Shown here: positions 6,187 through 40,068 of the stretch, one piece after another
Layout of the letters: each line of letters begins with the position of its first letter
Position numbering within the stretch: position 1 is the stretch's first letter
Sequence record: PX055572.1
Strand: one strand, 5' to 3'
Length of the DNA: 44,832 bases
Source: a phage
The notes under the pieces: model-generated
What the model was told of the DNA's origin: nothing
The model's database searches: none
The model's input: the letters and a program-made list of their open reading frames with translations, nothing else
Translations under genes and position numbers: made by a program

Positions 6187-6215
6187 ATAGTACCCTATTA
6201 TATTGGTGTGTGCAA
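6187..6215 (-). promoter_or_regulatory. Promoter G: TTGCAC-N17-TACTAT with AATAG-N4-CTATT palindrome
   Basis: As transcribed: TTGCAC ACACCAATATAATAGGG TACTAT; ~28 nt upstream of small peptide/lipoprotein operon. Confidence 0.55.
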
Positions 6216-6488
6216 ACTATTTATTTACGTATTCCAGTTATTCCACCGAATTGTAAATGTTGGAATAAACTATTCGAATAGTTGACTTTTCACTGAAAAT
6301 ATGCTAAGCTCCACCTGAGCTTGTGAAGTATGAACAAGCGACCGCGGCGCGGGCAGGTAACGGAGCGGGACGTAAGTCCTGAGTGTAGTTACGCTGACGC
6401 GTTCGGAAGGGCCATACTCTATTGCTTGTGTAAAAAGTAACTGGTTTACTGAGATTACGCCGTTTCTATGTTTAAATGATAAGGACTA

Positions 6489-6520
6489 GCGCCCCGCTTT
6501 ATGGCGGGGCTTTACTTATC
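6489..6520 (+). terminator. Hairpin terminator/attenuator immediately upstream of Rz
   Basis: GCCCCGC-tttatg-GCGGGGC followed by TTTACTTAT; ends 16 nt before Rz ATG. Confidence 0.45.
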
Positions 6521-6535
6521 GAGAAAGGGGGAAAC

Positions 6536-6922
6536 ATGAATCTTAAAGCAACCGTCGTAGCAGGAGCATGTTTCATCATCCTGGCTTACACACACGGCAT
6601 TTATCAGTACCGCAGCGGCTGGAGCGAAGGCCGGGCGAATCTCGTTTCGCAGCAACAGCAGAAAGTACAGGCTGAGTTAGCGAAGAAAACACAACGGCAG
6701 CAGCAGGACGAATCAAAGGCCGCCGCCGCTGACAACGAAGGCAAGACGAAATCAGAGGTGATTACCCGTGAAGTCGTTAAGTACATTAAAACGCCTGGTC
6801 GCAGCGTGTGCACTTTCGACGATGCTCGCGTCCTGCTCAAGTCCCACGCCGTCGCAAACGCTAATTCCATTACCGGATACGACGATGATGCAGCCTCCGT
6901 GCAAACTGGCAGCTCCAAGTAG
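6536..6922 (+). CDS. Rz: i-spanin (Rz-like)
   Basis: N-terminal TM helix ATVVAGACFIILAYTHGIY followed by Q/K/E-rich coiled-coil; SD aagggggaa; contains out-of-frame lipoprotein ORF (Rz1) at its 3' end. Confidence 0.6.
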   Translation: MNLKATVVAGACFIILAYTHGIYQYRSGWSEGRANLVSQQQQKVQAELAKKTQRQQQDESKAAAADNEGKTKSEVITREVVKYIKTPGRSVCTFDDARVLLKSHAVANANSITGYDDDAASVQTGSSK

Positions 6923-7031
6923 CGACGCTGACGAGGATTTAGCTATCGACGTTCAGAACGCCGAATGCGTGCGGCAACTGCGTCTGAAAGTATTCCAGTT
7001 GCAGGATTATGTGAGGAATATTCTGGAATAG
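6768..7031 (+). CDS. Rz1: o-spanin (Rz1-like outer-membrane lipoprotein), GTG start
   Basis: GTG start with SD AGAGG 7 nt upstream; signal peptide with lipobox LASC; Pro-rich mature N-terminus CSSPTPSQTLIPLP; overlaps 3' end of Rz in a different frame and extends 109 nt beyond. Confidence 0.6.
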   Translation: MKSLSTLKRLVAACALSTMLASCSSPTPSQTLIPLPDTTMMQPPCKLAAPSSDADEDLAIDVQNAECVRQLRLKVFQLQDYVRNILE

Positions 7032-7113
7032 TTGCCTTGCATGTTGGAATAATTTATTCTTGACATGTAAATCCGGGTGGCCCGGGTTCCAACGTCCAGG
7101 GGACATACTGACT

Positions 7114-7815
7114 ATGAATCGTTTTTTACGTTATCCGTTCCAGGAAGAAGCTGGGGCAGAAGATAAAGCTGGTGGCGGTGACGCGCCGAAAATGTTCACC
7201 GCTGAAGAAGTTCAGGCGCTGATTGAGAAAGAAGTTGCCGGGCTTAAGGCTAATCAGGAAGCATTGTTGGCGGAGAAGAAAGAAGCCGCTCGCAAAGCAA
7301 AAGAGGCCGAAGAAGAACGGCAGCGCGCGCACCAGGAGGCGTTAAAAGCCGCTGGTAAGATGGATGAGTTCGAAAAGACGATTCGTAGCCAGTATGACCC
7401 GGTGTTAGCCGAGAAAGACGGTCGCATCTCCAGAATGGCAGAGCGTATCCTCGGCAGCGAACGTAAAGCGGTGCTAGGCTCTTTCGCGGGTGACTTTATT
7501 ACCCCAGAAGCAGTGGACATTCTTGCGCCGTTCGTTAAGACTGAGTTCGAAGGCGATGATGTGGTTACTAAGTTTGTTGGTGCAGACGGTAACGTAATCA
7601 CGACTGACCCGGAACAGTTCCGCAAATACCTGCGCGAACACAAGGCGTTTTCGCATTTGATCAAAGCAAATGCAGCTTCCGGCGGCGGGGCTTCCGGTAG
7701 CAAAGGCGGCGGGGCCGCACCAGCGTTTAAAGACATGAGTGAAGCAGAGCGTTTAGCCCTGTATAAATCGAACCCTGCCGAATTTGAACGGCAACTTAAA
7801 GCCCTGAGGAAATAA
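7114..7815 (+). CDS. Scaffolding protein
   Basis: Ala/Glu/Lys-rich helical protein (EKKEAARKAKEAEEERQRAHQEALKAAG) immediately upstream of major capsid gene; first ATG in ORF. Confidence 0.6.
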   Translation: MNRFLRYPFQEEAGAEDKAGGGDAPKMFTAEEVQALIEKEVAGLKANQEALLAEKKEAARKAKEAEEERQRAHQEALKAAGKMDEFEKTIRSQYDPVLAEKDGRISRMAERILGSERKAVLGSFAGDFITPEAVDILAPFVKTEFEGDDVVTKFVGADGNVITTDPEQFRKYLREHKAFSHLIKANAASGGGASGSKGGGAAPAFKDMSEAERLALYKSNPAEFERQLKALRK

Positions 7816-7817
7816 TA

Positions 7818-8867
7818 ATGGCAATTACCACTATCGGCGATATCGTAACTGGCAACATCCCGGTCCTGGCGTCTTATATGACCGAGGACCCGGTAGAAAA
7901 AACCGCGTTCTTCCAGTCTGGTATTCTGACCCCGACCCCGTACGCTGCCGAGATTGCCCGCGGCCCGTCCAACGTCGCTAATATTCCGTTCTGGAAAGCG
8001 ATTGATACCTCTATCGAGCCTAACTACTCGAACGATGTATACCAGGACATCGCCACCCCGCGTAACGTGCAGACCGGTGAGATGATGGCCCGCGTTGCAT
8101 ACCTGAACGAAGGTTTCGGTCAGGCGGATTTGACTGTCGAACTGACCAGCCAGAACCCGCTGCAATCCGTAGCGTCCCGTCTGGATAACTTCTGGCAGCG
8201 CCAGGCACAACGCCGTCTGATTGCTACCGCGCTCGGTCTGTACAACGACAACGTAGCTGCTACCGATGCTTACCACGAGCAGAACGACATGGTTATCGAC
8301 GTGTCTGCTACTCTGGGCTTCGATGCGGGCGCGTTCATCGACGCTACCCAGACTATGGGTGATGCGCTGATGGGCAACGGCGGTGAAGTGCTAGGCGCTA
8401 TCGCGATGCATAGCTTCGTTTATGCGCAGGCCCGTAAGCAGCAGCTTATTGACTTCATCAAAGACGCTGACAACAACACCCTGTTCGCCACCTACCAGGG
8501 CTACCGCGTGATTGTTGACGACAGCATGACCGTAGTCGGCACTGGCCCGACCCGTAAGTTCATCTCCATCATCTTCGGCAACGGCGCTATCGGTTACGGT
8601 GAAGGTTCTCCGTCCAACCCGCTGGAATACGAGCGCGAAGCGTCTCGCGGTAACGGTGGTGGTGTAGAAACCCTGTGGACCCGTAAGACCTGGTTGCTGC
8701 ATCCGTTTGGCTACAGCTTCACCAGCGCGGTAATCACCGGTAACGGCACCGAGACTGTTGCACGCTCTGCTTCCTGGCAGGACCTGGCGAATGCCTCCAA
8801 CTGGAACCGTGTGGTTGAGCGCAAGCATGTGCCGATTGCCTTCCTGGTAACTGGTGTCGGGTCTTAA
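7818..8867 (+). CDS. Major capsid protein
   Basis: 349 aa directly after scaffold gene with SD GAGGAAA; followed by hairpin terminator; size and position. Confidence 0.7.
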   Translation: MAITTIGDIVTGNIPVLASYMTEDPVEKTAFFQSGILTPTPYAAEIARGPSNVANIPFWKAIDTSIEPNYSNDVYQDIATPRNVQTGEMMARVAYLNEGFGQADLTVELTSQNPLQSVASRLDNFWQRQAQRRLIATALGLYNDNVAATDAYHEQNDMVIDVSATLGFDAGAFIDATQTMGDALMGNGGEVLGAIAMHSFVYAQARKQQLIDFIKDADNNTLFATYQGYRVIVDDSMTVVGTGPTRKFISIIFGNGAIGYGEGSPSNPLEYEREASRGNGGGVETLWTRKTWLLHPFGYSFTSAVITGNGTETVARSASWQDLANASNWNRVVERKHVPIAFLVTGVGS

Positions 8868-8882
8868 GGTTAAGCTATAATC

Positions 8883-8910
8883 GAGAGGGACTTCGGTCCC
8901 TCTTTTCATT
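8883..8910 (+). terminator. Intrinsic terminator/attenuator after major capsid gene
   Basis: GAGGGAC-ttcg-GTCCCTC then TTTTCATTT. Confidence 0.6.
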
Positions 8911-8928
8911 TACTAAGAGGATTCCTAA

Positions 8929-9270
8929 ATGGCAGACGTATTGAAGCGACGCACCACCGGCGTCTCCGCTGACGCCCCGGGCGCTAAGATTGACATGGAG
9001 ACTATTTCTCCTGCGTCTTTCTCTTCCGCGCTGGCGGCTACTACCGCAGTGACCACAGGTGAAACTATGACACTGACCGTAACCGTAGCGGGCGGTCTGG
9101 AGCCATATTCTTACCAGTGGTATAAGAATAACAACGCCATCGCCGGGGCTACCGCAGCTACCTACGCTAAAGCGTCGACCACTGCCGCCGACTCCGGTAC
9201 GTATAAAGTGGTTGTTCACGATGCGTATGGTAATATTATCTCCAGCAGCACTGTAGCAACTGTGTCTTAA
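8929..9270 (+). CDS. Ig-like domain protein (putative decoration protein)
   Basis: MTLTVTVAGGLEPYSYQWYKNN...DSGTYKVVVHD; paralogous to C-terminus of ORF 5162..5620. Confidence 0.5.
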   Translation: MADVLKRRTTGVSADAPGAKIDMETISPASFSSALAATTAVTTGETMTLTVTVAGGLEPYSYQWYKNNNAIAGATAATYAKASTTAADSGTYKVVVHDAYGNIISSSTVATVS

Positions 9271-9305
9271 TACAGCGGCCCTTCGGGGCCGTAATAAGGA
9301 AAGGT

Positions 9306-9486
9306 CATGGCAGATAATTATGTAATCCGCGAAAAGTACACCCACGTTGATGTTGTTGACGGTCAGGTGATGCCTGTTCGCGGTGCGGTAGAAGCGGAAG
9401 AACTGGTTGCAACACAACCGGACAACGAAGAAGCGCACAACAACGGTGGTGGTACTAAGCGACGTCGCCGTAAGTCAGAGGAATAA
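9306..9486 (+). pseudogene. Small ORF interrupted by apparent +1 frame break at a G-run (9358-9362)
   Basis: ATG 9306 with SD AAGGAAAGG gives MADNYVIREKYTHVDVVDG then continues in frame only 1 nt downstream (...VMPVRGAVEAEELVATQPDNEEAHNNGGGTKRRRRKSEE, stop 9484-9486). Confidence 0.25.
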
Positions 9487-9489
9487 TTT

Positions 9490-10002
9490 ATGCCGCTAAT
9501 CGTGGAAACTGGGGAAATCGTCCCGAATGCCGACAGTTACATTAGTCTGGCTGACGCCCGCGCGTTAGCGGCTAATTATGGTCTGGAGTTGCCCGCGGAT
9601 GATACCGCCGCAGAGGTGGCCTTGCGCAACGGTGCTACTTATGTCGGGCTTGCAGAACCGCAGATGTGCGGGCGTCGCGTATCCGCTGAACAGTCTCTTG
9701 CGTATCCACGCACGGGTGTAACGTTGAATGGTTTCCCAGTAGCTAACAATGCCATTCCGAAACAGGTAATTCTCGCGCAGGTAATCGCCGCTGTTACGTA
9801 TGGAGCTGGCACTGATGTTCGGGCTAACTCCGATGGACGTTCCGTGCAGACCGAGCGTGTAGAGGGTGCGGTAACAGTTACCTACTTCAACAACGGCAAC
9901 AGCGGAGCCACAACCGCGATTACCGCCGCTGACGACGCCTTACGCCCGTTACTGTGTGGTGGTCTTAACAACGGCTTCTCATTTAATGTGTACCGGGGTT
10001 AA
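9490..10002 (+). CDS. Head-tail connector / structural protein
   Basis: 170-aa ORF in neck region between capsid and tail genes; position only. Confidence 0.4.
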   Translation: MPLIVETGEIVPNADSYISLADARALAANYGLELPADDTAAEVALRNGATYVGLAEPQMCGRRVSAEQSLAYPRTGVTLNGFPVANNAIPKQVILAQVIAAVTYGAGTDVRANSDGRSVQTERVEGAVTVTYFNNGNSGATTAITAADDALRPLLCGGLNNGFSFNVYRG

Positions 10003-10004
10003 AA

Positions 10005-10619
10005 ATGGCGAAGACTAAATCAGAGATGTTTACTCTTATCGGCGCAAACCTCCCCGATAACACTACCGGGCTTATTACCCCAGCAGCGTTGCGCGAGGTA
10101 ATGACCCAGATGGCTGACTCACCTATTTACGCCACTCCAGGTGTTAAAGAGGTTGAAGTTCTCCGCGCTGCGTCGACAGTAGCGCAAGCGCCTACCGCAG
10201 TAGATACGGCGTTGCAGGTATCGTTCGGCTCTGCTCAGGGTAGTGCATCTGACCCGGTAATGATTAATGCTGCGGGGCTGGTTACATTCAACACCGCGGG
10301 TAACTATGCCGTTCGCATCAAGTTACAGGCCGGTCGCTCCGGCGCTAGCGGAACGTCTATCCTGTTGTCGCGTATCCGCATTAACGGCGCTCAGTACGGC
10401 TCACCAGCAGCTACGAAACTTGTTAGCTCGGAAACCACCATCCCTATTGAATCCCGTGTAGTGATTAACCCAACCGCCGGGCAAACATTCGCCGTTCAGA
10501 TTATGCGAGATAGCGCCGGGACTAACTTCGGAGGCGTATACCCGCAGGTGGCTACTGTAACTGCATGGGGCACGGCACCGTCCGCGCTACTGGTTATTTC
10601 GAGACTGGAGGCTGCCTGA
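10005..10619 (+). CDS. Structural (neck/head completion) protein
   Basis: 204 aa, tightly packed in structural operon; position only. Confidence 0.35.
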   Translation: MAKTKSEMFTLIGANLPDNTTGLITPAALREVMTQMADSPIYATPGVKEVEVLRAASTVAQAPTAVDTALQVSFGSAQGSASDPVMINAAGLVTFNTAGNYAVRIKLQAGRSGASGTSILLSRIRINGAQYGSPAATKLVSSETTIPIESRVVINPTAGQTFAVQIMRDSAGTNFGGVYPQVATVTAWGTAPSALLVISRLEAA

Positions 10620-10978
10620 TGAGCACTGCTTTCAGTAAACGTATGCAAGGCGTGGGTACACGCCTGCTAACCAAATTCGGTAGCACGGTATCTCTGATTC
10701 GCGCTGGCTCGAAAGTGTGGGATGAAGTTCTCGGTGAGTACGTCTGGTCTGCGGACGAAGTGTTGCCGTTGAAGGCCGTTCCGGTTCCTGTTAATGCGGG
10801 TCTGGTGAACGGTACGACGATTCAGGCTGGTGACATGATTGTTAAAGCCGATTACAGCGTCGTTCCTAAGATGGAAGACAAAGTGCAATTCGGCGGCGAG
10901 CAATGGTCCGTCGTAGCCATTGAGAAGAAGGTGGTTAACGATGATGTTGTGGCCTACTTTATTCAGGTGAGAAAATGA
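10619..10978 (+). CDS. Head-tail joining protein
   Basis: ATG 10619 overlapping upstream stop (ATGA), SD GGAGG; 119 aa; position. Confidence 0.4.
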   Translation: MSTAFSKRMQGVGTRLLTKFGSTVSLIRAGSKVWDEVLGEYVWSADEVLPLKAVPVPVNAGLVNGTTIQAGDMIVKADYSVVPKMEDKVQFGGEQWSVVAIEKKVVNDDVVAYFIQVRK

Positions 10979-11370
10979 GTTTCGCGCTGGACGTCTCTAA
11001 GTTCGTGGAAAAGGCGAAGAAGAACCCTGAGAAGGTGATGCGTCAGGTGTCTATCAAGCTGTTTTCCGCTATTATAAAGGCGAGTCCGGTAGATACTGGT
11101 CGGTTTCGCATGAACTGGATGGCATCTGGCGGTACTCCTGCTTCCGGGATTACGGATGCTACGGATAAATCAGGAAACACAGCAACCGGAAACGCTACAA
11201 GTTTCGTGCTGAAAGCCACCGACTGGCATGAGTTCACGCTGACAAATAACCTGCCGTATGCACAACGGCTGGAGTATGGCTGGTCGCAACAGGCCCCGCA
11301 AGGATTCGTCAGGACTAACGTGTCCCGCTTCCAGCAACTCATTAACGAAGAAGCTAGCAAGGTGAGATGA
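10975..11370 (+). CDS. Tail completion / neck protein (HK97 gp10-like)
   Basis: 131 aa with DTGRFRMNW segment resembling HK97 gp10 family motif (from memory); position before major tail gene. Confidence 0.4.
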   Translation: MSFALDVSKFVEKAKKNPEKVMRQVSIKLFSAIIKASPVDTGRFRMNWMASGGTPASGITDATDKSGNTATGNATSFVLKATDWHEFTLTNNLPYAQRLEYGWSQQAPQGFVRTNVSRFQQLINEEASKVR

Positions 11371-11783
11371 TGGGCTACTTTGAGGACTTAACAAAAGCGT
11401 TTGATGTGCCGCTGGTAGCCTTCGGAACCACCAACGGCATCAAGGTAGCGCTTGAAAACATCGACGCGCCGACGTCAACAGATACGCCGTATCTGGCAAG
11501 TTACATGTTGCTGGCGGATACCGAGCAGGCTGACTTATTCTTCACGGAACAACGCGCCGGTGTCTATCAGATAGACATTAACTACGCATCGGTGAAAGGT
11601 AGCGCGCCAATCAATAAAATGGCAGACTTACTTAACACGGCGTTTAAATCAGGTAAGTCATTTTCACGTAACGACATCTGCGCCGAGGTTCAATCGGTTA
11701 GCCTGGGGCCGCTGATTGTAGAAAACGGATGGGCCAAAAGACCATTGTCAATTAACTTTATTGCATTCACCAAGAGGCTGTGA
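11367..11783 (+). CDS. Tail terminator / completion protein
   Basis: 138-aa ORF immediately upstream of major tail protein; position only. Confidence 0.35.
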   Translation: MMGYFEDLTKAFDVPLVAFGTTNGIKVALENIDAPTSTDTPYLASYMLLADTEQADLFFTEQRAGVYQIDINYASVKGSAPINKMADLLNTAFKSGKSFSRNDICAEVQSVSLGPLIVENGWAKRPLSINFIAFTKRL

Positions 11784-11785
11784 AT

Positions 11786-12952
11786 ATGGCTACAACTCCT
11801 TTTAAGGGCGCGAATACCGCGCAATTCTATGTGGCGGAAACTACCCCGGGCGTAACACCGGCTAACCCGGTATGGTCGCCACTGCGTAACACAGGCGGCG
11901 TTCCTGCCATTACCCGTGACACGCTGACCTCCAACGAACTGGACGGCAGCCGCGAAACTACATCCATCCGCACCGGTAACAAGCAGGTTAGCGGTGAATA
12001 TGCTATTGAGCTTAGCTCGAAAAGCCAGGATGACTGGCTAGCCGGGGCTTTAGGCTCTACGTGGCAGGCTGGCGTATCTCTGTCAGGGCTATCGATTACC
12101 GTCGCACCGGCTGGCAAGACGTTCACACGTGCCACCGGCAGCTTTATCACTGACGGAGTTGGGGTAGGCGACCTGATTGCGTTTACCGATTTAACTGGCG
12201 ATAATGCAAAACCATTTATTGTTACTGCAGTAACGGCTACGGTTGTTACTGGTGCAGGCATCCAACACACCCTGACCACCGAGACAAAAACTAGTAAGGC
12301 TAAAACTGGCGACACGCTGGAAACCGGTAATACGTGTAAGACGTTCTCTATCCTTACCTGGTACAAAGGCCAGTGCGGCGGTACTTACGCGTACACGTTA
12401 ACCAAAGGCGTGGAAGTTTCTGGTTTTACCATCGAACAGGCTGTTAACGCGATGGTAACTGGCAGCTTCCCATTCATCGGTCGCAGTCAGGAGATTCTCA
12501 CCACGCCGCCGAGGGGTTCCAACTTCTCATCTGTTACTTTTGGTGATGAGCCGTTTTCTTCGGTTGACGTTTCCGTGTTCGATGGTTCTACGCCGTTGCG
12601 ATGCGACAGTCTGACTATCACCAACGATAACAGCGCGTCCGCGCAGTTCGAACTTGGTAACACTAACGTAGCGTTTGTTGAGCGTAGCCGCGCGGCTAAC
12701 ACTTTCTCCATCTCCGGCAAGCTGTACGACATGGCGATGATTCAGAAGTTTATCAACGAACAGCAGGTAGAGATTAACTCTATTCTGGCGGGGGTAAACG
12801 GGGCTATGTCTTTCAGTTTGAAACGCGCAGAGCTTACAGCAGTAACACCAGAGATTAGCGGACCAGAGTCAATCACTCAGTCCATTGAGGGGCAGGCCAC
12901 CGGCAACCAGTACCAGTCGTCTATCGTAATTCAACGTATCACCTACGCATAA
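11786..12952 (+). CDS. Major tail protein
   Basis: ATG 11786 with SD AAGAGG 8 nt upstream (ORF track starts at GTG 11780); 389 aa Thr/Gly/Ser-rich beta-type protein; followed by strong bidirectional terminator. Confidence 0.55.
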   Translation: MATTPFKGANTAQFYVAETTPGVTPANPVWSPLRNTGGVPAITRDTLTSNELDGSRETTSIRTGNKQVSGEYAIELSSKSQDDWLAGALGSTWQAGVSLSGLSITVAPAGKTFTRATGSFITDGVGVGDLIAFTDLTGDNAKPFIVTAVTATVVTGAGIQHTLTTETKTSKAKTGDTLETGNTCKTFSILTWYKGQCGGTYAYTLTKGVEVSGFTIEQAVNAMVTGSFPFIGRSQEILTTPPRGSNFSSVTFGDEPFSSVDVSVFDGSTPLRCDSLTITNDNSASAQFELGNTNVAFVERSRAANTFSISGKLYDMAMIQKFINEQQVEINSILAGVNGAMSFSLKRAELTAVTPEISGPESITQSIEGQATGNQYQSSIVIQRITYA

Positions 12953-12954
12953 AA

Positions 12955-12982
12955 CTAAGGCCCCTTTCGGGGCCTTTTTCTT
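12955..12982. terminator. Bidirectional terminator between major tail gene and reverse cassette
   Basis: AGGCCCC-tttc-GGGGCCT then TTTTCTT; A-rich on the other side. Confidence 0.65.
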
Positions 12983-13535
12983 ACAAACCTAATTTTAAAG
13001 CAATGTCTATAACGTTCGATTTAACGTCACCCGGTATGATGTAGGTGTCGTAATCTTTTACACCACTAACATCATACAGATAGCCACGGCTATCGCCGAT
13101 GAACGTATAGCCGTCACGATGGAGGCGAACGATTTGCACGTCATGCCCTGCGGCGACGATAGGGGCAACTTCACTGGCGAATCCACCGTCGGACACTACA
13201 AAAACTTCGTCGCCGTCAGGCAAGTTTTCAGCAAGATACTTACCGAAATAATCATCGCCGAATACCGGTTTAATGAATTGCTCAGAAATGGCAATCATTA
13301 ACTGGCGGCGGGACAACCCATTAAGAAAACCCTCGGGTTTTTCTTTCCGCGCCCGGTCGTCGTAGCCGTCGAGAAATTCGTGGTAAGCATCCTGGCCTAA
13401 CGCTGCCAAAGCAATATTGAACATTGGATTCTTGAAACTGGTAGTTCCTTTCGCAAAGCCCATTTCTACCAGCGCCATAGCAAGCGTGTCTTTCCCGCAA
13501 CCCGCAGGGCCATTAAGAATAATTACCTTAGCCAC
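12981..13535 (-). CDS. P-loop nucleotide kinase (dNMP kinase / polynucleotide kinase-like)
   Basis: Walker A GPAGCGKDT at N-terminus; 184 aa; adjacent to HAD phosphatase in reverse-strand cassette. Confidence 0.6.
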   Translation of the reverse strand: MAKVIILNGPAGCGKDTLAMALVEMGFAKGTTSFKNPMFNIALAALGQDAYHEFLDGYDDRARKEKPEGFLNGLSRRQLMIAISEQFIKPVFGDDYFGKYLAENLPDGDEVFVVSDGGFASEVAPIVAAGHDVQIVRLHRDGYTFIGDSRGYLYDVSGVKDYDTYIIPGDVKSNVIDIALKLGL

Positions 13536-14023
13536 TATTTATCGCTCCCGTGTGGTTTTAAGTGTGTAGAGTTCCCGTTACAGTCGTATTCGGTAACTGC
13601 GTGTGCGGTTATGCCGAGGTCACGGAAATGCTTTATTACCGCTGGAGAGTCGTCGAACGCACACAAGATTCTTTCCAGTCCGAAAGCACGCAACACCTCT
13701 TCTTTAATTACGATGTCTTTTCTGTTGTCGTGTTTGCTGCGCATGATTAGCGTGTCAAACCTAACGTTATTCTCTCGTAACCATTCGCGAGTCTCCTCCT
13801 CAGCGTCATCACTTCGCCCGGTAAGGATAATTATAGTAAGTCCGGAATGCCACAGTACGCTACACAAATGGATATTGTCGTATATCGGAGCGTCATCTTT
13901 GCAGGCCATGTTAAATGGCTTCCACGCCCACGTTTCTCCGTAGTTATCTTTTGGTAACAGGTGTAAGCGATGGGTACCGTCGGCCAATGTCCCGTCTAAA
14001 TCGAAAATTACAATATCTTTCAT
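13535..14023 (-). CDS. HAD-superfamily phosphatase (nucleotidase / 3'-phosphatase-like)
   Basis: N-terminal catalytic motif DLDGTL (DxDxT), 162 aa; translationally coupled to kinase gene. Confidence 0.6.
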   Translation of the reverse strand: MKDIVIFDLDGTLADGTHRLHLLPKDNYGETWAWKPFNMACKDDAPIYDNIHLCSVLWHSGLTIIILTGRSDDAEEETREWLRENNVRFDTLIMRSKHDNRKDIVIKEEVLRAFGLERILCAFDDSPAVIKHFRDLGITAHAVTEYDCNGNSTHLKPHGSDK

Positions 14024-15150
14024 CCCAGCATCTCCGGTGAAATAGTTAAACGTGCGACCTCGCCATATTCGGCGCTATAAGTAATTACATTTGCACTGCG
14101 GCCCGACATCCATCCGCCGCGAGAGGCGTAGGCGTCTTTAGCCGCTAAGGTGCGGTGTTGCTCAACAATCATGTTACGGCTTTCTACAATCTTCTGGTGG
14201 TGCAGATGGCCTACGTGGGCGTAGCTGTAAACACTCTCGCCGAACGCTTTACGGAACTTGGCAATCATAACCGGTTCGATAGCGTCGAATCGTGCTTTAT
14301 GCCCGTGATGGAAGAACAGCGTCGTTTTGCCGTGTCGCACCATCTTGTAAACATCCGGCGACGTATCGACGAATACACGAGGCTCGTTGTCGTACAGTGT
14401 GCTGAACATCTCCGCCAGCCAAATCATCCCGGATTCGTCGTGGTTCCCCTGAACTATAAGCAAGCGAACAGTTTTATGCTTAACCAGAGCCATATCAACA
14501 ACACGGCGGACCATGCGAATCATGTAGCGGACAAGTTTCTGGTAACGCGTGTCGGCGTCAAGGACATGACCACTAGCCGGTGTAACGGCGTCAAGACTAT
14601 CGAAGTGAGCTAAGTCGCCAAGAAGATTAATAACCCCCGTACCTGCATCCGGTGCTTTCTGAAACGCAGCATCAAACCAACGAGAGAATAAGTCCTCCGC
14701 GATTTTCATATCCCAGTCGTCGCCGCTCTCGTCAGCCCAGGCTAACATACCGAGATGGAAATCAGATACCGTGTAAAGATTGAGTAGTTTATCGTCACGT
14801 TTGGCTCGTGCCGGTTTAACAGGCGCAACGGGCGTAATCTCTGACTTCATGCCCTCTATTACGGCTTTCATCAATTCAACCTGACGTTCGGCATCAGCGT
14901 CGGTCTTAACCCATTGCAACTTAGTGTTGCCGAACTCGTCCACCAGGGACGACGTTCCTTTAATCTTGTAACCGTCTGGTACAAGGTGACTAACGTCGCG
15001 CCCGTGGCCTACGCCTTTCTTAGCCAGCTTCGCTTTACGGATACGAATAACGCGGTCTGAGATTCCGTATTTACGGGCGATATCGATATTCTTCATCCCG
15101 GCGTTCAATTCTTCCTGCAACTGTTCGTCGGTTATTTTCTTCTGGGCCAT
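14020..15150 (-). CDS. Calcineurin-like metallophosphoesterase with N-terminal HTH domain
   Basis: Motifs DFH, GDLAHFD, GNHDE, HHGH, GHLHH; N-terminal 60 aa HTH-like (IDIARKYGISDRVIRIRKAK); start ATG 15150 with SD GAGGAA 7 nt upstream (ORF track extends further 5'). Confidence 0.65.
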   Translation of the reverse strand: MAQKKITDEQLQEELNAGMKNIDIARKYGISDRVIRIRKAKLAKKGVGHGRDVSHLVPDGYKIKGTSSLVDEFGNTKLQWVKTDADAERQVELMKAVIEGMKSEITPVAPVKPARAKRDDKLLNLYTVSDFHLGMLAWADESGDDWDMKIAEDLFSRWFDAAFQKAPDAGTGVINLLGDLAHFDSLDAVTPASGHVLDADTRYQKLVRYMIRMVRRVVDMALVKHKTVRLLIVQGNHDESGMIWLAEMFSTLYDNEPRVFVDTSPDVYKMVRHGKTTLFFHHGHKARFDAIEPVMIAKFRKAFGESVYSYAHVGHLHHQKIVESRNMIVEQHRTLAAKDAYASRGGWMSGRSANVITYSAEYGEVARLTISPEMLG

Positions 15151-15188
15151 GCTTACTTCCTCGTGTTTAGGATTTGTCTTATGGTAGC

Positions 15189-15380
15189 CTACTTCTCTTT
15201 CACGTTCGAGTTGCAAGCCCAGATTAAAATGAATACCCACGGCAACAGAATCCACCCGAGAAATAAGTTAGCCATGAATATCGCCAGCTTTGCTTTATGG
15301 TTACGCATATGTGCCACCAAAAACGGGATAAAATAAACGGCTACAAAAATAATTAAGAAGAACATAGTGATACCGGTCAT
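15189..15380 (-). CDS. Small two-TM membrane protein, superinfection-immunity (Imm)-like
   Basis: MTGITMFFLIIFVAVYFIPFLVAHMRNHKAKLAIFMANLFLGWILLPWVFILIWA; start at internal ATG with SD AGGAG 7 nt upstream; LLGW...WxxxLxWA pattern resembles superinfection-immunity family (from memory). Confidence 0.45.
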   Translation of the reverse strand: MTGITMFFLIIFVAVYFIPFLVAHMRNHKAKLAIFMANLFLGWILLPWVFILIWACNSNVKEK

Positions 15381-15422
15381 AACATAACTCCTGATTTGAG
15401 ATAACATCGTTGGTGTAAGTGA

Positions 15423-15451
15423 ATAGTACGCTATTATATTGGGGAGTGCAA
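15423..15451 (-). promoter_or_regulatory. Promoter H: TTGCAC-N17-TACTAT with AATAG-N4-CTATT palindrome
   Basis: As transcribed: TTGCAC TCCCCAATATAATAGCG TACTAT; ~40 nt upstream of Imm-like gene. Confidence 0.55.
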
Positions 15452-15558
15452 GTAGTGTGCTAGAATAATTTTGCGCCTAGTGTCGCACACGAAAAGCGGG
15501 TGGTTCCCGTCTGGCGCATTTCCTTTAACCAGTAACCTCTTAACCAAAGGATTAAAGA

Positions 15559-28796: not shown

Positions 28797-29084
28797 CTAA
28801 CTATAATAGTTCGCTATTAGGGTGTCAACCTGTTTGAACGAACCAACTACAAAAACATTTGCACCACGCTTACGCATCCGCTCGTGCTCTCGTAACTGGT
28901 GCGGGTCAGGCTTCGTGCTTTCGTCTTTCTTCACCTCGACGAACCAGACGATGCCGCCAGGGAGAATTACCAGCAGGTCGGGAGCGCCGGAACGCCCCTC
29001 ATACACTATCTTACGAACGAGGCCACCAATGGCCTCGAATCGGTCTTTTGCGTATTTCTGTATTTTGCCCTCAGGCGTACTCAT
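28797..29084 (-). CDS. VRR-NUC domain nuclease
   Basis: PD-(D/E)xK-type core GAPDLLVILPGGIVWFVEVKK; ATG 29084 with SD GAGGGG (ORF track starts at upstream GTG). Confidence 0.6.
   Translation of the reverse strand: MSTPEGKIQKYAKDRFEAIGGLVRKIVYEGRSGAPDLLVILPGGIVWFVEVKKDESTKPDPHQLREHERMRKRGANVFVVGSFKQVDTLIANYYS
28800..28828 (-). promoter_or_regulatory. Promoter A: TTGACA-N17-TATAGT with palindrome in spacer
   Basis: As transcribed: TTGACA CCCTAATAGCGAACTAT TATAGT; between VRR-NUC gene and ORF 28575..28766. Confidence 0.6.
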
Positions 29085-29165
29085 CCACACACCCCTCACG
29101 TTTCGTATGTTCAGTACCGCAGCGCGGACAGATTCGACAGTCTTCTTCGTAGAACCAGTAAATTT

Positions 29166-32487: not shown

Positions 32488-32516
32488 ACTATAATAGCTA
32501 ACTATTCAGGTGTCAA
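32488..32516 (-). promoter_or_regulatory. Promoter B: TTGACA-N17-TATAGT with palindrome in spacer
   Basis: As transcribed: TTGACA CCTGAATAGTTAGCTAT TATAGT; upstream of SSB-like gene. Confidence 0.6.
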
Positions 32517-32520
32517 CACT

Positions 32521-34375: not shown

Positions 34376-34417
34376 ATTACGACCCTCAGTTAAAGCGGCC
34401 CGAAGGCCGCGGGATAG

Positions 34418-34936: not shown

Positions 34937-34960
34937 TTGTTTCTCTCCTGTTTGTGTAAG

Positions 34961-35188: not shown

Positions 35189-35216
35189 ATCTGCCCCTCT
35201 CGTTTGGTATGGGCTA

Positions 35217-35245
35217 ACTATAATAGCGAACTATTCACATGTCAA
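35217..35245 (-). promoter_or_regulatory. Promoter C: TTGACA-N17-TATAGT with palindrome in spacer
   Basis: As transcribed: TTGACA TGTGAATAGTTCGCTAT TATAGT; in divergent region facing Cro-like gene. Confidence 0.6.
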
Positions 35246-35289
35246 TGGGCTTTTCTAAAATAATTAATATGGTACTATTCACATATCAA
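35234..35289 (+). promoter_or_regulatory. Candidate rightward promoter and operator-like half-palindrome for Cro-like gene
   Basis: TTCACA (35234-35239)-N16-TAAAAT (35256-35261) overlapping promoter C; downstream element GGTACTATTCACATATCAA (35271-35289) resembles the palindrome. Confidence 0.35.
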
Positions 35290-35309
35290 CTGACTAAGGA
35301 GTAACTGAC

Positions 35310-35525
35310 ATGCAACCATCTGAACTAGGCACCCGTGTAGAACAACGCCGTAAAGAACTCGGCATCTCCCAGCGCCGTTTGGCGGTCCTGACCGGCGTTT
35401 CCCAGGGCGCAATTAACCAGCTGGCTCTCGGTGTAACTCAGGACGTCCGCCCGGCAACGTTGTTTAAACTGGCGGAAGTGCTGGAAGTAGACGCTAAGTG
35501 GCTGGCGTTCGGTGAAGGGGCTTGA
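35310..35525 (+). CDS. HTH XRE-family transcriptional regulator (Cro-like)
   Basis: ISQRRLAVLTGVSQGAINQL helix-turn-helix; 71 aa; SD AAGGAG; divergent from replication operon; followed by terminator. Confidence 0.65.
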   Translation: MQPSELGTRVEQRRKELGISQRRLAVLTGVSQGAINQLALGVTQDVRPATLFKLAEVLEVDAKWLAFGEGA

Positions 35526-35542
35526 CGCCCCTTTCTTTTTAT
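35515..35542 (+). terminator. Intrinsic terminator after Cro-like gene
   Basis: GGGGC-ttgac-GCCCC then TTTCTTTTTATT; overlaps the stop codon. Confidence 0.6.
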
Positions 35543-35736
35543 TGCACCTTTATCGGGTATCTTTTGCGAAACTTACCTAACCCGCAGTACACGCTGTAAG
35601 CCTCTGTGTAACTGAACACAACATGATACCCGCGCCCATAAGGAACTACGTTAAGAACTTCTACTACTTCGCCTCTGTGGTTGGTGTATTTATTACCTTT
35701 CAGTTCGTCGCTTACTTCTTTAAATTTACCGCTCAT
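35539..35736 (-). CDS. Hypothetical protein
   Basis: 65 aa, coupled to primase-helicase stop. Confidence 0.35.
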   Translation of the reverse strand: MSGKFKEVSDELKGNKYTNHRGEVVEVLNVVPYGRGYHVVFSYTEAYSVYCGLGKFRKRYPIKVQ

Positions 35737-38018
35737 TCCAAATCCTCCTCTGTCACTGTCAACATTTCATTCGGTTCGTATATTGTCTTTGGAATCTTGT
35801 TATCAGTTATTCTGGTGTTCAGCCTGTAACGACCTGGGATTATCTGATTGTTTTCGTCAGTACCCGGAACAAGATACCCGGCCTCAACCATTTTCTTAAT
35901 CTTCCCGCGTTCTATGGCTTCTTTGGAGTTAAACGCCTTTGCGTTGGGGTCTGACTGTGCGAGCTTATTCGCCGCGGCGACTGTGATGCCTTCGTTGCCG
36001 TTGTAGGTTCCTTCCGCCAGTTCAAACGCCGCGAGTATCGTGGCCTCCGAACTGTTGACGGCGTTCTCTACGGTTTTACGTACATTTTCTTTACCTTCTT
36101 TCGTCAACCCTTCTTCCCGCTCTTTCTCCTCGTCAGTTTTGAACGGCTCGAAACCCCACGGCATCAACACAAGCGCCTTGTGTGGTTCAGGCAGGTCCAG
36201 GTTTACGATTGTGCCGTATTCCTCTGTGCTACCCGGGAACTCAACCGCTCGGTATTCTTTAGGCGGCGGCGCTTCACGGAACTGTACCGACTCCAGCACC
36301 ATGCCAACCGTCTTCTGCTGAGGCCCGTGCTTGAATTTCGAGTGATATACGTTTATCTGACGGTCGGTTGCACGTTCGATTGTCAGTTCCACGTCAACAC
36401 CCGCATACAGCGCCCCACTGCCGCGTGCTTTCTTTCCACCCTTCGGCGTATGGTGGACAACGCCTACTGCGGCTTTAGTTGCATCGCGTACTTCTTTCAG
36501 AATGGCGATAACTTTACCCATGCCGATTGCTGTTGATGAACTGTTCTCGTCGAACTTATCAATCGTCAGGGCCAGCGTCTGGTTAAGGGTGTCGAAGGCA
36601 ACCATGCCAATAGGTTCATCCCCTGCGGTTTCGCGCATCCTGCGGATTAGAGCTGGAATTTTTTTATCACCATGCGTAGCGAGTATTTCGCCCATATCGA
36701 TGACATGTACATAATCTTTACCTTCCTCGCCATATTTAGCCGCGAGTGCATCAATACGTGTTCGTGTAGCTGCACCACCCTCGCCGTCAATATAGAAATG
36801 GTAGCAACGTTGGGTGTCAGCCCCCGCAAACCGGTACCCGGCGGCGCTCAGGTACATCATCCCCAGCGTATAGAATGATTTGTACGTGCCGGATTCCCCG
36901 ACAATATCCCAGATACAATCCGACGGCATGTACCCCTCAACGACGAAATCAGCCTTTACCGGTTCTGGTAACTCGTCCTCCTCTGAGTCCTCGTCGTCTT
37001 CCAGGTCGTCGAGGCTGCATGAGACAGATTCACGCGCCCCCCAACCGATGGCCTCTGCGACTTCACTGAACGGCAGCCCGGTCGCATCGCACGCGTACTT
37101 CCACACCTCTTTCGGTGACAGGCCTTCTGTCGCCGTAATGTCTGTGTCGTGAATCATGGTTACGTTTGGCGCTTCATACCCCTCGCGCGGGAAGCACAGC
37201 AGGAAGTCGTCCGGGCGCGGTGCCGGGGCGCTGTAGTTTTCGGCATGTTCCGGTGTGGCTGGCATCTTAAGGCCGCGCGGCGTCATGACGCCGCCGTACT
37301 CAAACGCCAGTGCTTCAAACGCGTCTGTAAACGCGGTGCGCAGTTCTTCCGGTATCTGGTAATCCGATGCGCTGCTAACGTCAACGGCGGGGATGCCTTC
37401 CAGTAACTCGTTCGGGTCGATCAGGTCGTTGCGGCGCGACCAGATAACGGTAGCGCCGACCGGCGGCAGGTACATCGGCTGCGACAGAGTGAACCCGCTG
37501 CGGTCCGCACCCATGCCTTTGAAGAAGTGCTCCAGCAACCCATGACGAACACGGATGATGTCACCACCCTCCACCGGACGGGCCAGTGGCATTACGACGC
37601 GAAAGCGCGGTGACTCATCAGTATGTGATGCCGTGGTATAGAGGCACATGGCCCAGCGGCTGCGCTTAACCAGGCGCACCGCTTCCTGATACTCTTCCGG
37701 TGTTGTGCTGTCGAAATCCAGATAGGCCAGCGACGATTTGCTTACAGACGCATCGCAGCGGTAGAAAAAACCTTTACGCGCTTGCTTAAAGTCTCCAGTT
37801 TCCGGGTCTTTTACGGTGCTGTGCGTTGAGTCGCACGCGGCGGTGATATAACCGGGCGCGGTCTTAGGGTTAATCCCGTCGCGAACGGCATCGAGCGGCT
37901 GGATTAACTCTTTCAGGTCGTCCAGTGTTGCCGTGTGTGCGGTTCTGACATTTATATCCTTTTTTCCCGCCCGCGCGTTGCGGCGTGACCACGAGTAGGA
38001 TAAAATTACATCGGACAT
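35733..38018 (-). CDS. Bifunctional primase-polymerase (AEP-like) / RecA-fold helicase
   Basis: N-terminal LAYLDFD (DxD) and SH motifs of prim-pol type; central Walker A GESGTYKS and Walker B-like MVAFDTL; C-terminus ends EEDLE; 761 aa. Confidence 0.7.
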   Translation of the reverse strand: MSDVILSYSWSRRNARAGKKDINVRTAHTATLDDLKELIQPLDAVRDGINPKTAPGYITAACDSTHSTVKDPETGDFKQARKGFFYRCDASVSKSSLAYLDFDSTTPEEYQEAVRLVKRSRWAMCLYTTASHTDESPRFRVVMPLARPVEGGDIIRVRHGLLEHFFKGMGADRSGFTLSQPMYLPPVGATVIWSRRNDLIDPNELLEGIPAVDVSSASDYQIPEELRTAFTDAFEALAFEYGGVMTPRGLKMPATPEHAENYSAPAPRPDDFLLCFPREGYEAPNVTMIHDTDITATEGLSPKEVWKYACDATGLPFSEVAEAIGWGARESVSCSLDDLEDDEDSEEDELPEPVKADFVVEGYMPSDCIWDIVGESGTYKSFYTLGMMYLSAAGYRFAGADTQRCYHFYIDGEGGAATRTRIDALAAKYGEEGKDYVHVIDMGEILATHGDKKIPALIRRMRETAGDEPIGMVAFDTLNQTLALTIDKFDENSSSTAIGMGKVIAILKEVRDATKAAVGVVHHTPKGGKKARGSGALYAGVDVELTIERATDRQINVYHSKFKHGPQQKTVGMVLESVQFREAPPPKEYRAVEFPGSTEEYGTIVNLDLPEPHKALVLMPWGFEPFKTDEEKEREEGLTKEGKENVRKTVENAVNSSEATILAAFELAEGTYNGNEGITVAAANKLAQSDPNAKAFNSKEAIERGKIKKMVEAGYLVPGTDENNQIIPGRYRLNTRITDNKIPKTIYEPNEMLTVTEEDLE

Positions 38019-38075
38019 GTTGTATTTCCTTCAGCAAGTAATTTGGCCTCGGCGCTCTAACGTCGGGGCTTTCTT

Positions 38076-38309
38076 TTATTCCAGGTCTTCTACAGTAGCG
38101 GTCATTCCGCGAACTTCAGCAACTGCGCTATATTTCCCACCAACATTTTTCACGACACCATATTTAACCAGTACCTTCAACGACCCTTCAATAATGGCGG
38201 AACTATAGTACTTAAAATAACTACGGCGCAAGTCCATAACGCTGCACGACCCTTTTTTACGTGTTAATGAAACGACTGCCGTAAATACGCGTGACTGGAA
38301 CTCGGTCAT
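38076..38309 (-). CDS. Small protein, ends in EDLE
   Basis: 77 aa; C-terminus TVEDLE matches the EDLE tails of the exonuclease and primase-helicase. Confidence 0.4.
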   Translation of the reverse strand: MTEFQSRVFTAVVSLTRKKGSCSVMDLRRSYFKYYSSAIIEGSLKVLVKYGVVKNVGGKYSAVAEVRGMTATVEDLE

Positions 38310-38476
38310 TTTACATTCTCCTTAATCCACGCTTCCACTTTCTCCCGGTCAAACGTACCTGGCTGACGGCGGCCCATAATGCGGATACAACAATCCGGGA
38401 ACTTCCCACTCTTTAACCAGTTATTCAGCGTGCGACGGGTAACCCCGATACGCTCAGCTACCTCATTCTGTGTCAT
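38306..38476 (-). CDS. AlpA-like HTH DNA-binding regulator
   Basis: MTQNEVAERIGVTRRTLNNWLKSGKFP... resembles AlpA/excisionase-type HTH (from memory); first ATG downstream of - strand promoter TTGATT-N17-TATACT; ORF track starts at TTG 38503. Confidence 0.5.
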   Translation of the reverse strand: MTQNEVAERIGVTRRTLNNWLKSGKFPDCCIRIMGRRQPGTFDREKVEAWIKENVK

Positions 38477-38508
38477 CCTCAAGCCCCCATTATCAGTTAA
38501 CAAAATCG

Positions 38509-38537
38509 AGTATACATTGTGAATAATGGGAAATCAA
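38509..38537 (-). promoter_or_regulatory. Leftward promoter TTGATT-N17-TATACT for AlpA-like gene and replication operon
   Basis: -35 (rev) 38532-38537, -10 (rev) 38509-38514, spacer 17. Confidence 0.5.
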
Positions 38538-38712
38538 ACATAATCGCACCTATTGACATTATGAAAATCTTCGTTTAAGGTGCTTTTATATCTTAGTTAC
38601 TTTGATTCTTGTTCACCTTGTAATACCCGCTTGAAACGCAGCGGCGCACCAGCGCCAGCGAAGTGTTAAGCGGCAGATTACTGAACATATGAATTATCGT
38701 AACTTTCCTTCC

Positions 38713-38775
38713 TAAGTATCTCAGGTTGCCCTGGGCAAGCTCTATTCTCATCGACGGCATATCTCTTAAGTATCT
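38713..38775. repeat. Direct repeats TAAGTATCT (x2) in divergent intergenic region
   Basis: cctAAGTATCTcagg at 38713-38721 and cttAAGTATCTgata at 38767-38775. Confidence 0.3.
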
Positions 38776-38813
38776 GATAATTAAAAGTTTCTATAGTTGC
38801 CGTGAGCAATGTT

Positions 38814-38870
38814 GAGAGTACTTCACTCCGCTGGGGTGGGCTAAAGCCCACCCGCTGCGTTGCGTACTCT
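38814..38870 (+). other. Composite stem-loop in divergent intergenic region
   Basis: Outer stem AGAGTAC/GTACTCT enclosing GGGTGGGC-taaa-GCCCACCC; followed by TTTTAAG; no ORF. Confidence 0.35.
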
Positions 38871-38912
38871 TTTAAGAAACGAAAGAATCACAACGGCAAC
38901 GTAACTATTCTC

Positions 38913-38941
38913 TTGCACACCCCAACATAATAGGTTACTAT
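38913..38941 (+). promoter_or_regulatory. Promoter D: TTGCAC-N17-TACTAT with AATAG-N4-CTATT palindrome
   Basis: TTGCAC ACCCCAACATAATAGGT TACTAT; 35 nt upstream of ATG 38976. Confidence 0.55.
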
Positions 38942-38975
38942 TCACTTATAGAAACGAGACAGAGGAGTGAGGGTT

Positions 38976-39164
38976 ATGTTTAAACGCGGTCAGTTGGTGA
39001 AAACAGCATATGGCTTTGGTGTTGTCGGAAAAGAGTCTGTCGTATACCCAGGGTCTTATATCATCCGTTATATCAGGCGGGACGGATTAACTCCTTCGGT
39101 TTATTACGAAGCTAATGAGTTAAAACTCATCGGCAACAATTTTAAATTCAAAGGGGCGAAGTGA
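38976..39164 (+). CDS. Small hypothetical protein
   Basis: ATG 38976 with SD AGAGGAG 8 nt upstream; first gene downstream of promoter D. Confidence 0.45.
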   Translation: MFKRGQLVKTAYGFGVVGKESVVYPGSYIIRYIRRDGLTPSVYYEANELKLIGNNFKFKGAK

Positions 39165-39397
39165 TGCAAATCATAATTACAGATAACACCGTTATCTACG
39201 AAGAAGATGGTGATACTCTCGAGAAAATAGGCGTAAATGTGGGTGATGTTTTCAATGTACTGGATTCCTGTGAGGATGGCTGGTGGATTAAGACAGGAAG
39301 ATACACAATCCCGGTAACTAAGGCAGAAGCGAAGGTATACACAACGGCATCTAATCATGATGCTCGTGCCGACGACTCTGAGGGAGGTTGCCGTTAA
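39164..39397 (+). CDS. Small hypothetical protein (paralog of 39397..39552)
   Basis: Shares IIITD / GVNVGDVF motifs with next ORF; ATG overlaps upstream stop. Confidence 0.45.
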   Translation: MQIIITDNTVIYEEDGDTLEKIGVNVGDVFNVLDSCEDGWWIKTGRYTIPVTKAEAKVYTTASNHDARADDSEGGCR

Positions 39398-39552
39398 TGA
39401 AAATTCGAATAACTGACCGCAGGCTTATAGATTTCGGTATCTCGGTAGGTGATGTTTTTCTGGCGTTCAGCAGCAACCATTATGGTTTTATGATTGAGTA
39501 CAAAGGGTCATTATTGTTCGTGTATCGGGATGAATGCGAGGTTCTGGTATGA
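39397..39552 (+). CDS. Small hypothetical protein (paralog of 39164..39397)
   Basis: MKIRITDRRLIDFGISVGDVF...; 51 aa; verified codon by codon; ATGA coupling on both sides. Confidence 0.4.
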   Translation: MKIRITDRRLIDFGISVGDVFLAFSSNHYGFMIEYKGSLLFVYRDECEVLV

Positions 39553-39710
39553 GAGAAGCATTCGAACGGTGGGCCATCGTCGAGGGTCTGCCGGTTAATA
39601 AGGGTTCGAAGAAAGAGTACCTGAACGTTAAGACGCGTCTCGCGTGGCGGGCGTGGAAAGCTGGTGCGAATGTAATGGCTGGCGCATTTGAGAAGAGAGG
39701 CGATTTATGA
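39549..39710 (+). CDS. Small hypothetical protein
   Basis: 53 aa; verified codon by codon; overlaps neighbours by 4 nt. Confidence 0.4.
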   Translation: MREAFERWAIVEGLPVNKGSKKEYLNVKTRLAWRAWKAGANVMAGAFEKRGDL

Positions 39711-39892
39711 GCAAGTGGATTAAGTGTAGTGAGCGGATGCCGGAGCCTTATGAATACGTTCTTGTAACTGATTGTTTTGTTGGCTGTGAGGTTATGCGTG
39801 TTAATTCAGATGGCTACTGGGGGCCTGCAAAGAGTTTATATCACGGTGATATAACGCACTGGATGCCGTTACCTGAGCCGCCGGAGGTGTGA
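39707..39892 (+). CDS. Small protein with THWMPLPEPP C-terminus (DUF551-like)
   Basis: C-terminal motif recalled as typical of a phage domain of unknown function (from memory). Confidence 0.4.
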   Translation: MSKWIKCSERMPEPYEYVLVTDCFVGCEVMRVNSDGYWGPAKSLYHGDITHWMPLPEPPEV

Positions 39893-40039
39893 TGTTCAAT
39901 AGTTTGGGATTTTACTGAGTGACTTACGCTGCTACACAGCAGCGTATCATTTTTCTCATTTTTGTTCTATTTCACCAAACGCAACAATCGAAGCGACTAT
40001 TGCAGGAGATGCAATAATACAAACACCAATAAAATTTAC

Positions 40040-40068
40040 TTGCACACTGGGATAGAATAGGCTACTAT
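40040..40068 (+). promoter_or_regulatory. Promoter E: TTGCAC-N17-TACTAT with AATAG-N4-CTATT palindrome
   Basis: TTGCAC ACTGGGATAGAATAGGC TACTAT; 32 nt upstream of ATG 40100. Confidence 0.55.

Follow-up and report, generated by a model that had tools for sequence, protein, structure and literature searches.

Genome setting and the class A promoters

The phage DNA of record PX055572.1 (44,832 nucleotides; this whole stretch is hereafter referred to as the window) was found by megablast to be a complete genome of the genus Kagunavirus (Guernseyvirinae), that of an Escherichia coli phage, with about 93% identity and collinearity to the phages BEU33, phiEc3 and Golestan. The annotated genome of Golestan (L001; 78 annotated genes) was used as the gene map. 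The terminase, portal, head and tail genes, the small-gene blocks and the lysis genes lie on the plus strand, and the replication genes lie on the minus strand at about 25.5-38.5 kb; two small minus-strand cassettes also sit within the structural-gene region. The present analysis concerns the promoters G, H, D and E (class A), located before these two cassettes and before two small-gene blocks, the palindrome that they contain, and the protein that may bind it.

In an earlier note, made by a model from the sequence alone, these promoters had been described as four near-identical elements forming one regulatory class. The pattern TTGCAC-N17-TACTAT indeed occurs in the window in exactly four zero-mismatch copies, on the strands and at the positions where the note had placed them (Table 1), while simple arithmetic gives a chance expectation of about 0.005 for a 12-base exact pattern on both strands of 44.8 kb. 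The triplet TCA, also mentioned there, directly follows the −10 hexamer in all four. The further claim that the elements align base for base over about 40 bp is correct insofar as the identity extends beyond the hexamers, but this identity is not full: the pairwise values are only 31-38 of the 45 nt counted from the −35 hexamer, and the spacer of promoter E diverges (ACTGGGATAGAATAGGC versus ACaCCAAyATAATAGGn in the others). Each of the four promoters points at its own genes, with the start codon 25-37 nt past the −10 hexamer and a Shine-Dalgarno sequence before it. By count, 7 of the 12 hexamer bases match the sigma-70 consensus (TTGACA/TATAAT), and class A may for this reason comprise the weaker promoters of the set described below. 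A TATAAT within the spacer was considered as the true −10 hexamer and rejected, as no −35-like hexamer lies 16-18 bp upstream of it. In the Rfam search, no RNA family was found at the promoters themselves.

A palindrome shared by a wider promoter set

Beyond the hexamers, the common core of G, H, D and E is a perfect 14-bp dyad, AATAG-N4-CTATT, which the earlier note had missed. Among the palindromes composed of five bases, a gap and five bases, this one is the most over-represented: it has seven exact copies in the window, where any other has at most four, and eight in Golestan. When one mismatch was allowed, ten matches were obtained against 1.05 expected, and none of 100 shuffled sequences reached ten. 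All of the seven exact copies in the window fall in promoters. Chance was thus rejected as the origin, since four exact 12-base patterns and seven exact 10-base dyads far exceed the expectation.

The dyad is present at eight or nine promoters, that is, at four to five besides G, H, D and E. Three of these, B1-B3, constitute class B (TTGACA-N17-TATAGT; 11 of 12 bases matching the consensus) and head the replication-gene operons on the minus strand. Another is the own promoter of a gene encoding a 71-amino-acid (aa) helix-turn-helix (HTH) protein; this promoter and B3 stand back to back, and their putative operators, as we call the dyads in the promoters, are 44 bp apart from centre to centre. 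The last, promoter X, is only a probable member, and its dyad copy is a possible weak operator. The grouping of G, H, D and E into one class therefore holds for a co-oriented, sigma-70-like subclass with shared regulation, but the set is not limited to four, because the dyad defines a larger one.

The position of the dyad relative to the hexamers differs among the promoters. The dyad starts 10 nt past the −35 hexamer in class A, where it supplies the −10 hexamer, and 4 nt past it in class B, where it lies in the spacer; in X it lies over the −35 hexamer itself. This difference in register between the promoter classes indicates that the dyad is an independent element and not a by-product of the hexamers. 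The spacing between the hexamers is 17 bp in the promoters of the window and 18 bp in some relatives.

Table 1. Putative promoters, operators, cassettes and regulator genes in the window (PX055572.1)
Feature	Position	Strand	Description
G cassette	5717..6159	−	33-aa hydrophobic peptide (6159-6058) and 114-aa lipoprotein (6061-5717); gp05/gp06 of Golestan
Promoter G, class A	6187..6215	−	TTGCAC-N17-TACTAT; putative operator AATAGGGTACTATT at 6186-6199, overlapping the −10
H cassette	12981..15407	−	Imm_superinfect protein, metallophosphoesterase, PNKP-type phosphatase, 184-aa open reading frame (ORF)
Promoter H, class A	15423..15451	−	Putative operator AATAGCGTACTATT at 15422-15435
Promoter B1, class B	28800..28828	−	TTGACA-N17-TATAGT; putative operator at 28805-28818, in the spacer
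Promoter B2, class B	32488..32516	−	Upstream of the DUF2815/DNA polymerase genes; putative operator at 32493-32506
Promoter B3, class B	35217..35245	−	Divergent from the HTH gene; putative operator at 35222-35235
Degenerate operator AATATGGTACTATT (putative)	35266..35279	+	One mismatch; over the −10 TACTAT (35273-35278) of the HTH gene's own promoter
71-aa Cro/C1-type HTH protein	35310..35525	+	Proposed operator-binding repressor; Pfam HTH_3, 2.3e-12
HTH_17 (excisionase/MerR-like) small protein	38306..38503	−	Rival candidate binder; upstream region 38504-38912 without the palindrome
Promoter D, class A	38913..38941	+	Putative operator AATAGGTTACTATT at 38929-38942
Promoter E, class A	40040..40068	+	Putative operator AATAGGCTACTATT at 40056-40069
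Promoter X	42672..42705	+	TTGACT-N17-TATATT (42677-42705) just past a terminator; one-mismatch palindrome ACTAGTTGACTATT over the −35

The repeat itself is already on record in sister phages, and hence it is not new. In the Golestan paper (PMC7203180, Table S4), a 20-mer found by PHIRE is listed seven times as 'phage promoters', and the fBC-Eco01 paper (PMC9825357, Table S2) gives seven PHIRE copies with the consensus tgAATAGTa-ccTATTat-T and assigns them to a phage-encoded RNA polymerase. In genome position, these 20-mers coincide with the promoters considered here, preceding the replication genes, the HTH gene, the small-gene blocks and the two cassettes G and H. The dyad symmetry goes unmentioned in both papers, as do the framing sigma-70 hexamers and a link with the HTH gene. 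The published label and the sevenfold recurrence of the 20-mer in both phages would make the elements phage-specific promoters that depend on an RNA polymerase or sigma factor of the phage itself, which seems to us hardly credible. Relative to transcription, the 20-mer in class A is oriented opposite to that in class B; the motif thus occurs in both orientations, as well as in three registers, and every copy is framed by TTGnnn-N17-TAnnnT. As the candidate reader, a phage RNA polymerase or sigma factor was sought and rejected, none being present among the 78 annotated genes of Golestan; the ORFs of the window were not all scanned individually.

Several minor observations concern the surroundings of these promoters. 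Promoter B1 is embedded in the final 30 nt of the ORF that precedes it (28797..29099, minus strand), whose TAG stop codon is found directly past the −10 hexamer. In both classes, promoters are followed by a leader of the form ACA/TCnAAACGAGAGGAG that extends into the Shine-Dalgarno sequence (6160-6186, 15390-15420, 35190-35216, 38945-38975, 40072-40099 and 42706-42738); this shared leader suggests that promoter-leader cassettes may have been duplicated around the genome. At 6277-6309 on the plus strand, 90 bp from promoter G, lies a one-mismatch dyad (AATAGTTGACTTTT) that provides, with its centre and its right half, a TTGACT −35 hexamer. This element points at the spanin and head genes, is kept in Golestan and is followed by a GC-rich leader of about 165 nt; it resembles promoter X and the sites of the St162 clade (see below) in which the dyad lies over the −35 hexamer. 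In many Kagunaviruses, an extra perfect dyad with the sequence AATAGGTTACTATT occurs before the terminator of block D (38971-38984 in Golestan), with no hexamers around it, and its counterpart in the window is degenerate (CAATAGTTTGGGATT at 39897-39911). Finally, TATAG-TATG-CTATT is found about 30 nt upstream of the head-morphogenesis gene, past the portal terminator, in Golestan (2776-2789) and in the Jerseyvirus wksl3 (L002; 42386-42399).

Conservation in related phages

For comparison, we used loci from IMG/VR (37 of Kagunavirus and about 11 of Jerseyvirus) together with the whole genomes of the Jerseyvirus wksl3 and of St162 (L003), a member of a third, Salmonella-infecting, St162/Cornell-like clade. 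Between 30 and 39 Kagunavirus loci retain the promoters, and so does Jerseyvirus, which has the same dyad, TAATAG-N4-CTATTA, at the orthologous promoters. When the consensus sequences of the two genera were compared over five orthologous promoters, 47 of the 50 half-site positions were identical, as against 7 of 20 in the centre and 21 of 40 in the 4-nt flanks (Fisher tests for the half-sites versus the centre and versus the flanks: 6e-7 and 5e-6, respectively). Within Kagunavirus, the variable columns number 13 of 60 in the half-sites versus 17 of 24 in the centre (4e-5). Half-sites that are conserved around a freely varying centre are what a dimeric DNA-binding protein would be expected to leave as its footprint. 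The operator of the HTH gene is also kept in both genera, with one half degenerate. The −35 hexamer, which reads TTGACG, TTGGCA or TTGCAT in Jerseyvirus, drifts among these and TTGCAC, that is, among ordinary sigma-70 variants, and this fits recognition by the host polymerase.

These comparisons bear on the view that the elements are plain constitutive host promoters, spread by duplication of promoter-leader cassettes, in which the palindrome is incidental and merely supplies −10-like hexamers on both strands. A cassette ancestry is in keeping with the common leader (..AAACGAGAGGAG..) that accompanies the core, and the dyad does give TACTAT on one strand and TATTAT or TATAGT on the other. In class B, however, sigma-70 has no sequence need in the spacer, and yet the AATAG of the upstream half-site, which falls there, is invariant across the genera, although the four adjoining bases between the −35 hexamer and the dyad are scrambled. 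Since an incidental palindrome would also leave unexplained the association of helix and dyad in unrelated genomes described in the next section, we regard this view as quite unlikely.

The St162/Cornell-like clade carries an altered motif, AWTAC-N4-CTAAT, at about eight promoters. It was spotted by reading the upstream regions and was then tested by a pattern search, which gave nine matches against 2.1 in shuffled sequences; the same pattern search found no enrichment of this motif in the window or in wksl3. A PHIRE-like 16-mer search of this clade (L051 and L052) yielded only noise from coding sequences. The altered motif is informative as to whether the palindrome might be the site of a host transcription factor. 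The motif is common to Kagunavirus, infecting E. coli, and Jerseyvirus, infecting Salmonella, whose hosts have many regulators in common, though we found nothing that supports such a factor directly. The motif of the St162 clade is a different one even though this clade, like Jerseyvirus, infects Salmonella, and this speaks for a binder encoded by the phage and not by the host; moreover, homologous HTH genes in distant bacteria have a palindrome of the same type alongside them. We therefore consider a host factor very improbable. The St162 clade retains the gene for the HTH protein. In this clade, the helicase-primase module (9779-12685 in St162) is inverted and lies directly downstream of this gene on the same strand.

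A Cro-like protein and its recognition helix

The 71-aa HTH protein encoded beside promoter B3 resembles the Cro protein of phage 434 in both sequence and fold. Its best sequence match in the PDB by phmmer is 434 Cro, a protein of equal length (E value, 1.3e-6; residues 6-68). The AlphaFold2 model, built from the single sequence, has five helices and a predicted local distance difference test (pLDDT) value of 81, and its top Foldseek matches are 434 Cro (2cro) and the N-terminal domain of the 434 repressor (1pra).

A scan of a genome collection with a four-sequence alignment returned 13 loci with HTH homologues. The distant homologues (36-44% identity) occur in unrelated prophage-like loci with GC contents of 46-63%. 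Where the recognition helix has the form G(V/I)(S/T)QG.I.Q, the dyad A(A/T)TAG-N4-CTAAT was found 11-77 bp upstream of the gene in all loci but one (those with both helix and dyad are L055, L056/L066, L058, L059, L060, L063 and L064), while none of the 11 homologue loci with other recognition helices carries an upstream dyad. This co-occurrence of helix and dyad in unrelated loci appears to be the strongest indirect support for the Cro-like protein as the binder, and the dyad is most likely the binding site of this phage-encoded, putative repressor.

Transcription units and timing

The genes downstream of the class A promoters agree with their description in the earlier note as a small peptide/lipoprotein operon (G), an Imm-like cassette (H) and two small-gene blocks (D and E). 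The lipoprotein of the G cassette has the lipobox LSGC, and the Imm_superinfect match in the H cassette is clear (Pfam, 1.8e-13). The regulon is not confined to the 'early' blocks and membrane cassettes named there; the replication genes and the regulator gene are included too. Unit E, behind its small genes, continues through the holins and a Phage_lysozyme endolysin to a terminator near 42615-42650; the terminator scan detected none within this unit up through the holin and endolysin genes. Terminators are present after blocks D and E.

The label 'early' given to these units is not established. One reason is that unit E includes lysis genes. Another is the RNA sequencing (RNA-seq) of phage K1B4 (PMC12645636), the only Kagunavirus time course that we located, which has eight time points up to 120 min, provides gene-level peaks at low resolution and probably covers more than one infection cycle. 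In K1B4, the Imm gene falls together with the methylases and the DNA polymerase in the latest-peaking class. This common peak fits a joint control of the H cassette and the class B operons and not a simple early label. A literature search for this subfamily located no mapping of 5′ ends (transcription starts) and no operator or footprint study.

Proposed regulation and the choice of binder

From the sequences, their statistics and conservation, the family and fold of the protein and the association of helix and palindrome, we infer binding, the sign of regulation and its timing as follows. The 71-aa protein would be made early from its own promoter, would bind each operator as a dimer and would block RNA polymerase, so that all of the eight or nine units, including its own gene, would be turned down. 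The circuit would be a Cro-only shut-off, lacking a CI partner, in a virulent phage. As the dyad overlaps the −10 hexamer or fills the spacer, repression by occlusion is the natural reading, and the degenerate operator at the regulator's own promoter would give a weaker autoregulation. On these grounds, the reading of G, H, D and E as host sigma-70 promoters on which the Cro-like protein acts as a repressor through dispersed operators appears to us somewhat better than an even proposition.

Several points weigh against it. Kagunavirus and Jerseyvirus have the same operator, but four positions differ between their recognition helices (SQGAINQ and SQSLITH, respectively), and the covariation of helix and operator among the three phage clades is not clean. 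The motif of the St162 clade shows a consistent asymmetry that would be unusual for the site of a homodimer. The modest match of the class A hexamers to the consensus leaves room for activation rather than repression at these promoters. The K1B4 data (PMC12645636), at their low resolution, reveal no obvious early shut-off of the H cassette or of the replication genes. Lastly, another small HTH protein, belonging to the HTH_17 family, is 85% identical between Kagunavirus and Jerseyvirus and tracks the unchanged motif better than the Cro-like protein does, the latter being 49% identical between the two genera.

This HTH_17 protein of 56-65 aa may be considered as the binder in its own right; it might repress transcription, activate the weak class A promoters or be loaded at the promoter in the manner of an AlpA/Q-like factor. 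Its gene is the first in the one early operon that lacks the palindrome, and the four genes of K1B4 that peak earliest include an unspecified 'HTH domain' gene (PMC12645636). No HTH_17 homologue was found in the St162 clade, however, and yet a related motif is found at the same promoters there. Direct repeats are the usual binding sites of excisionase-type HTH proteins, as in the case of 186 Apl (PMC7498355). The domain match of the protein is to HTH_17 and not to the AlpA family. The 17-bp spacers of the promoters are shorter than those of MerR-type promoters (19-20 bp), so that a mechanism of this type is excluded. In the unrelated loci, furthermore, the palindrome type adjoins HTH_3 homologues, with no involvement of HTH_17. 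Taking these points together, we consider the HTH_17 protein an unlikely binder, though the main rival of the Cro-like protein.

Comparison with known systems and significance

The kind of system proposed here, a Cro-like protein acting at operators, is well known from 434, P22 and lambda; what sets it apart is that, in a virulent phage, Cro would act alone and at single operators dispersed over the genome. The operators of 434 are 14 bp long. The likeness to 434 Cro lies in an all-helical HTH_3 protein of 71 aa for which 434 Cro is the best PDB match in sequence and fold (template modelling score, about 0.72-0.78). As in the OR and OL regions read by 434 Cro, 434 cI and P22 C2, the dyads are 14 bp long, with half-sites of about 5 bp that would be contacted, a free 4-bp centre and an overlap with the core promoter, and, as in 434, the regulator gene is flanked by two divergent promoters that contain operators. 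Unlike 434, no second Cro/C1-type gene (a cI partner) and no integrase were found among the annotated genes of the relative Golestan. In place of the tripartite OR and OL of 434, a single operator per promoter is scattered over the eight or nine promoters, including those of the cassettes in the structural region; the half-site is AATAG here and ACAA in 434. The proposed logic, in which a small early repressor lowers early transcription, its own included, is that of lambda Cro at PL and PR during lytic growth, but lambda Cro is folded differently and has two clusters of operators as its targets. The CI-type repressors of uncharacterised prophages in beta-, gamma- and alphaproteobacteria (L055-L064) have homologous HTH domains with the SQG.I.Q helix, and their A(A/T)TAG-N4-CTAAT dyads lie in the divergent region upstream of the gene. 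Unlike the window, these loci have the look of a classical immunity region, with a divergent second HTH gene, and belong to GC-rich temperate elements.

Phages of the Guernseyvirinae are widely proposed for therapy and for food biocontrol, and the small 'repressor' gene that they carry is at times flagged as potentially indicating lysogeny. If the proposed regulation is correct, a Cro-type shut-off role with eight to nine defined operators would explain the presence of a repressor gene in strictly lytic phages, and a testable map of the transcription units would be obtained. The published label 'phage RNA-polymerase promoter' would be corrected, although the current understanding would not be overturned. 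The operator-repressor pair with its natural variants (AATAG, ATTAG and AATAC) could also serve as a compact orthogonal regulatory part. A broader and more doubtful generalization is that, in virulent Kagunavirus and Jerseyvirus alike, nearly all promoters for the host polymerase (those of the replication, small-gene, lysis, membrane/immunity and regulator units) are under one Cro-only repressor, with the dyad doubling as a −10 hexamer in either orientation. An infected cell might then silence related incoming genomes, given that the two genera have identical operators; this would be a form of cross-immunity at the level of transcription.

Other elements in the window

A 217-aa ORF at 3320-4034 on the minus strand gives a weak KilA-N match (E value, 3e-4) and is absent from Golestan; in the window, this insertion fills the spot of the TATAG-TATG-CTATT dyad upstream of the head-morphogenesis gene. 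The ORF's own promoter, TTGATT-N18-TAGAAT, lies inside a 9+4+9 inverted repeat, ATTCTACAT-TCAA-ATGTAGAAT, which is a different operator-like dyad. In the gap between promoter H and the tail-assembly-chaperone gene, the region 15470-15534 on the plus strand matches the Rfam int-alpA RNA (RF02996) over the full model with 36.6 bits, against a gathering score of 35.8, and a U-rich run is found past its 3′ stem.

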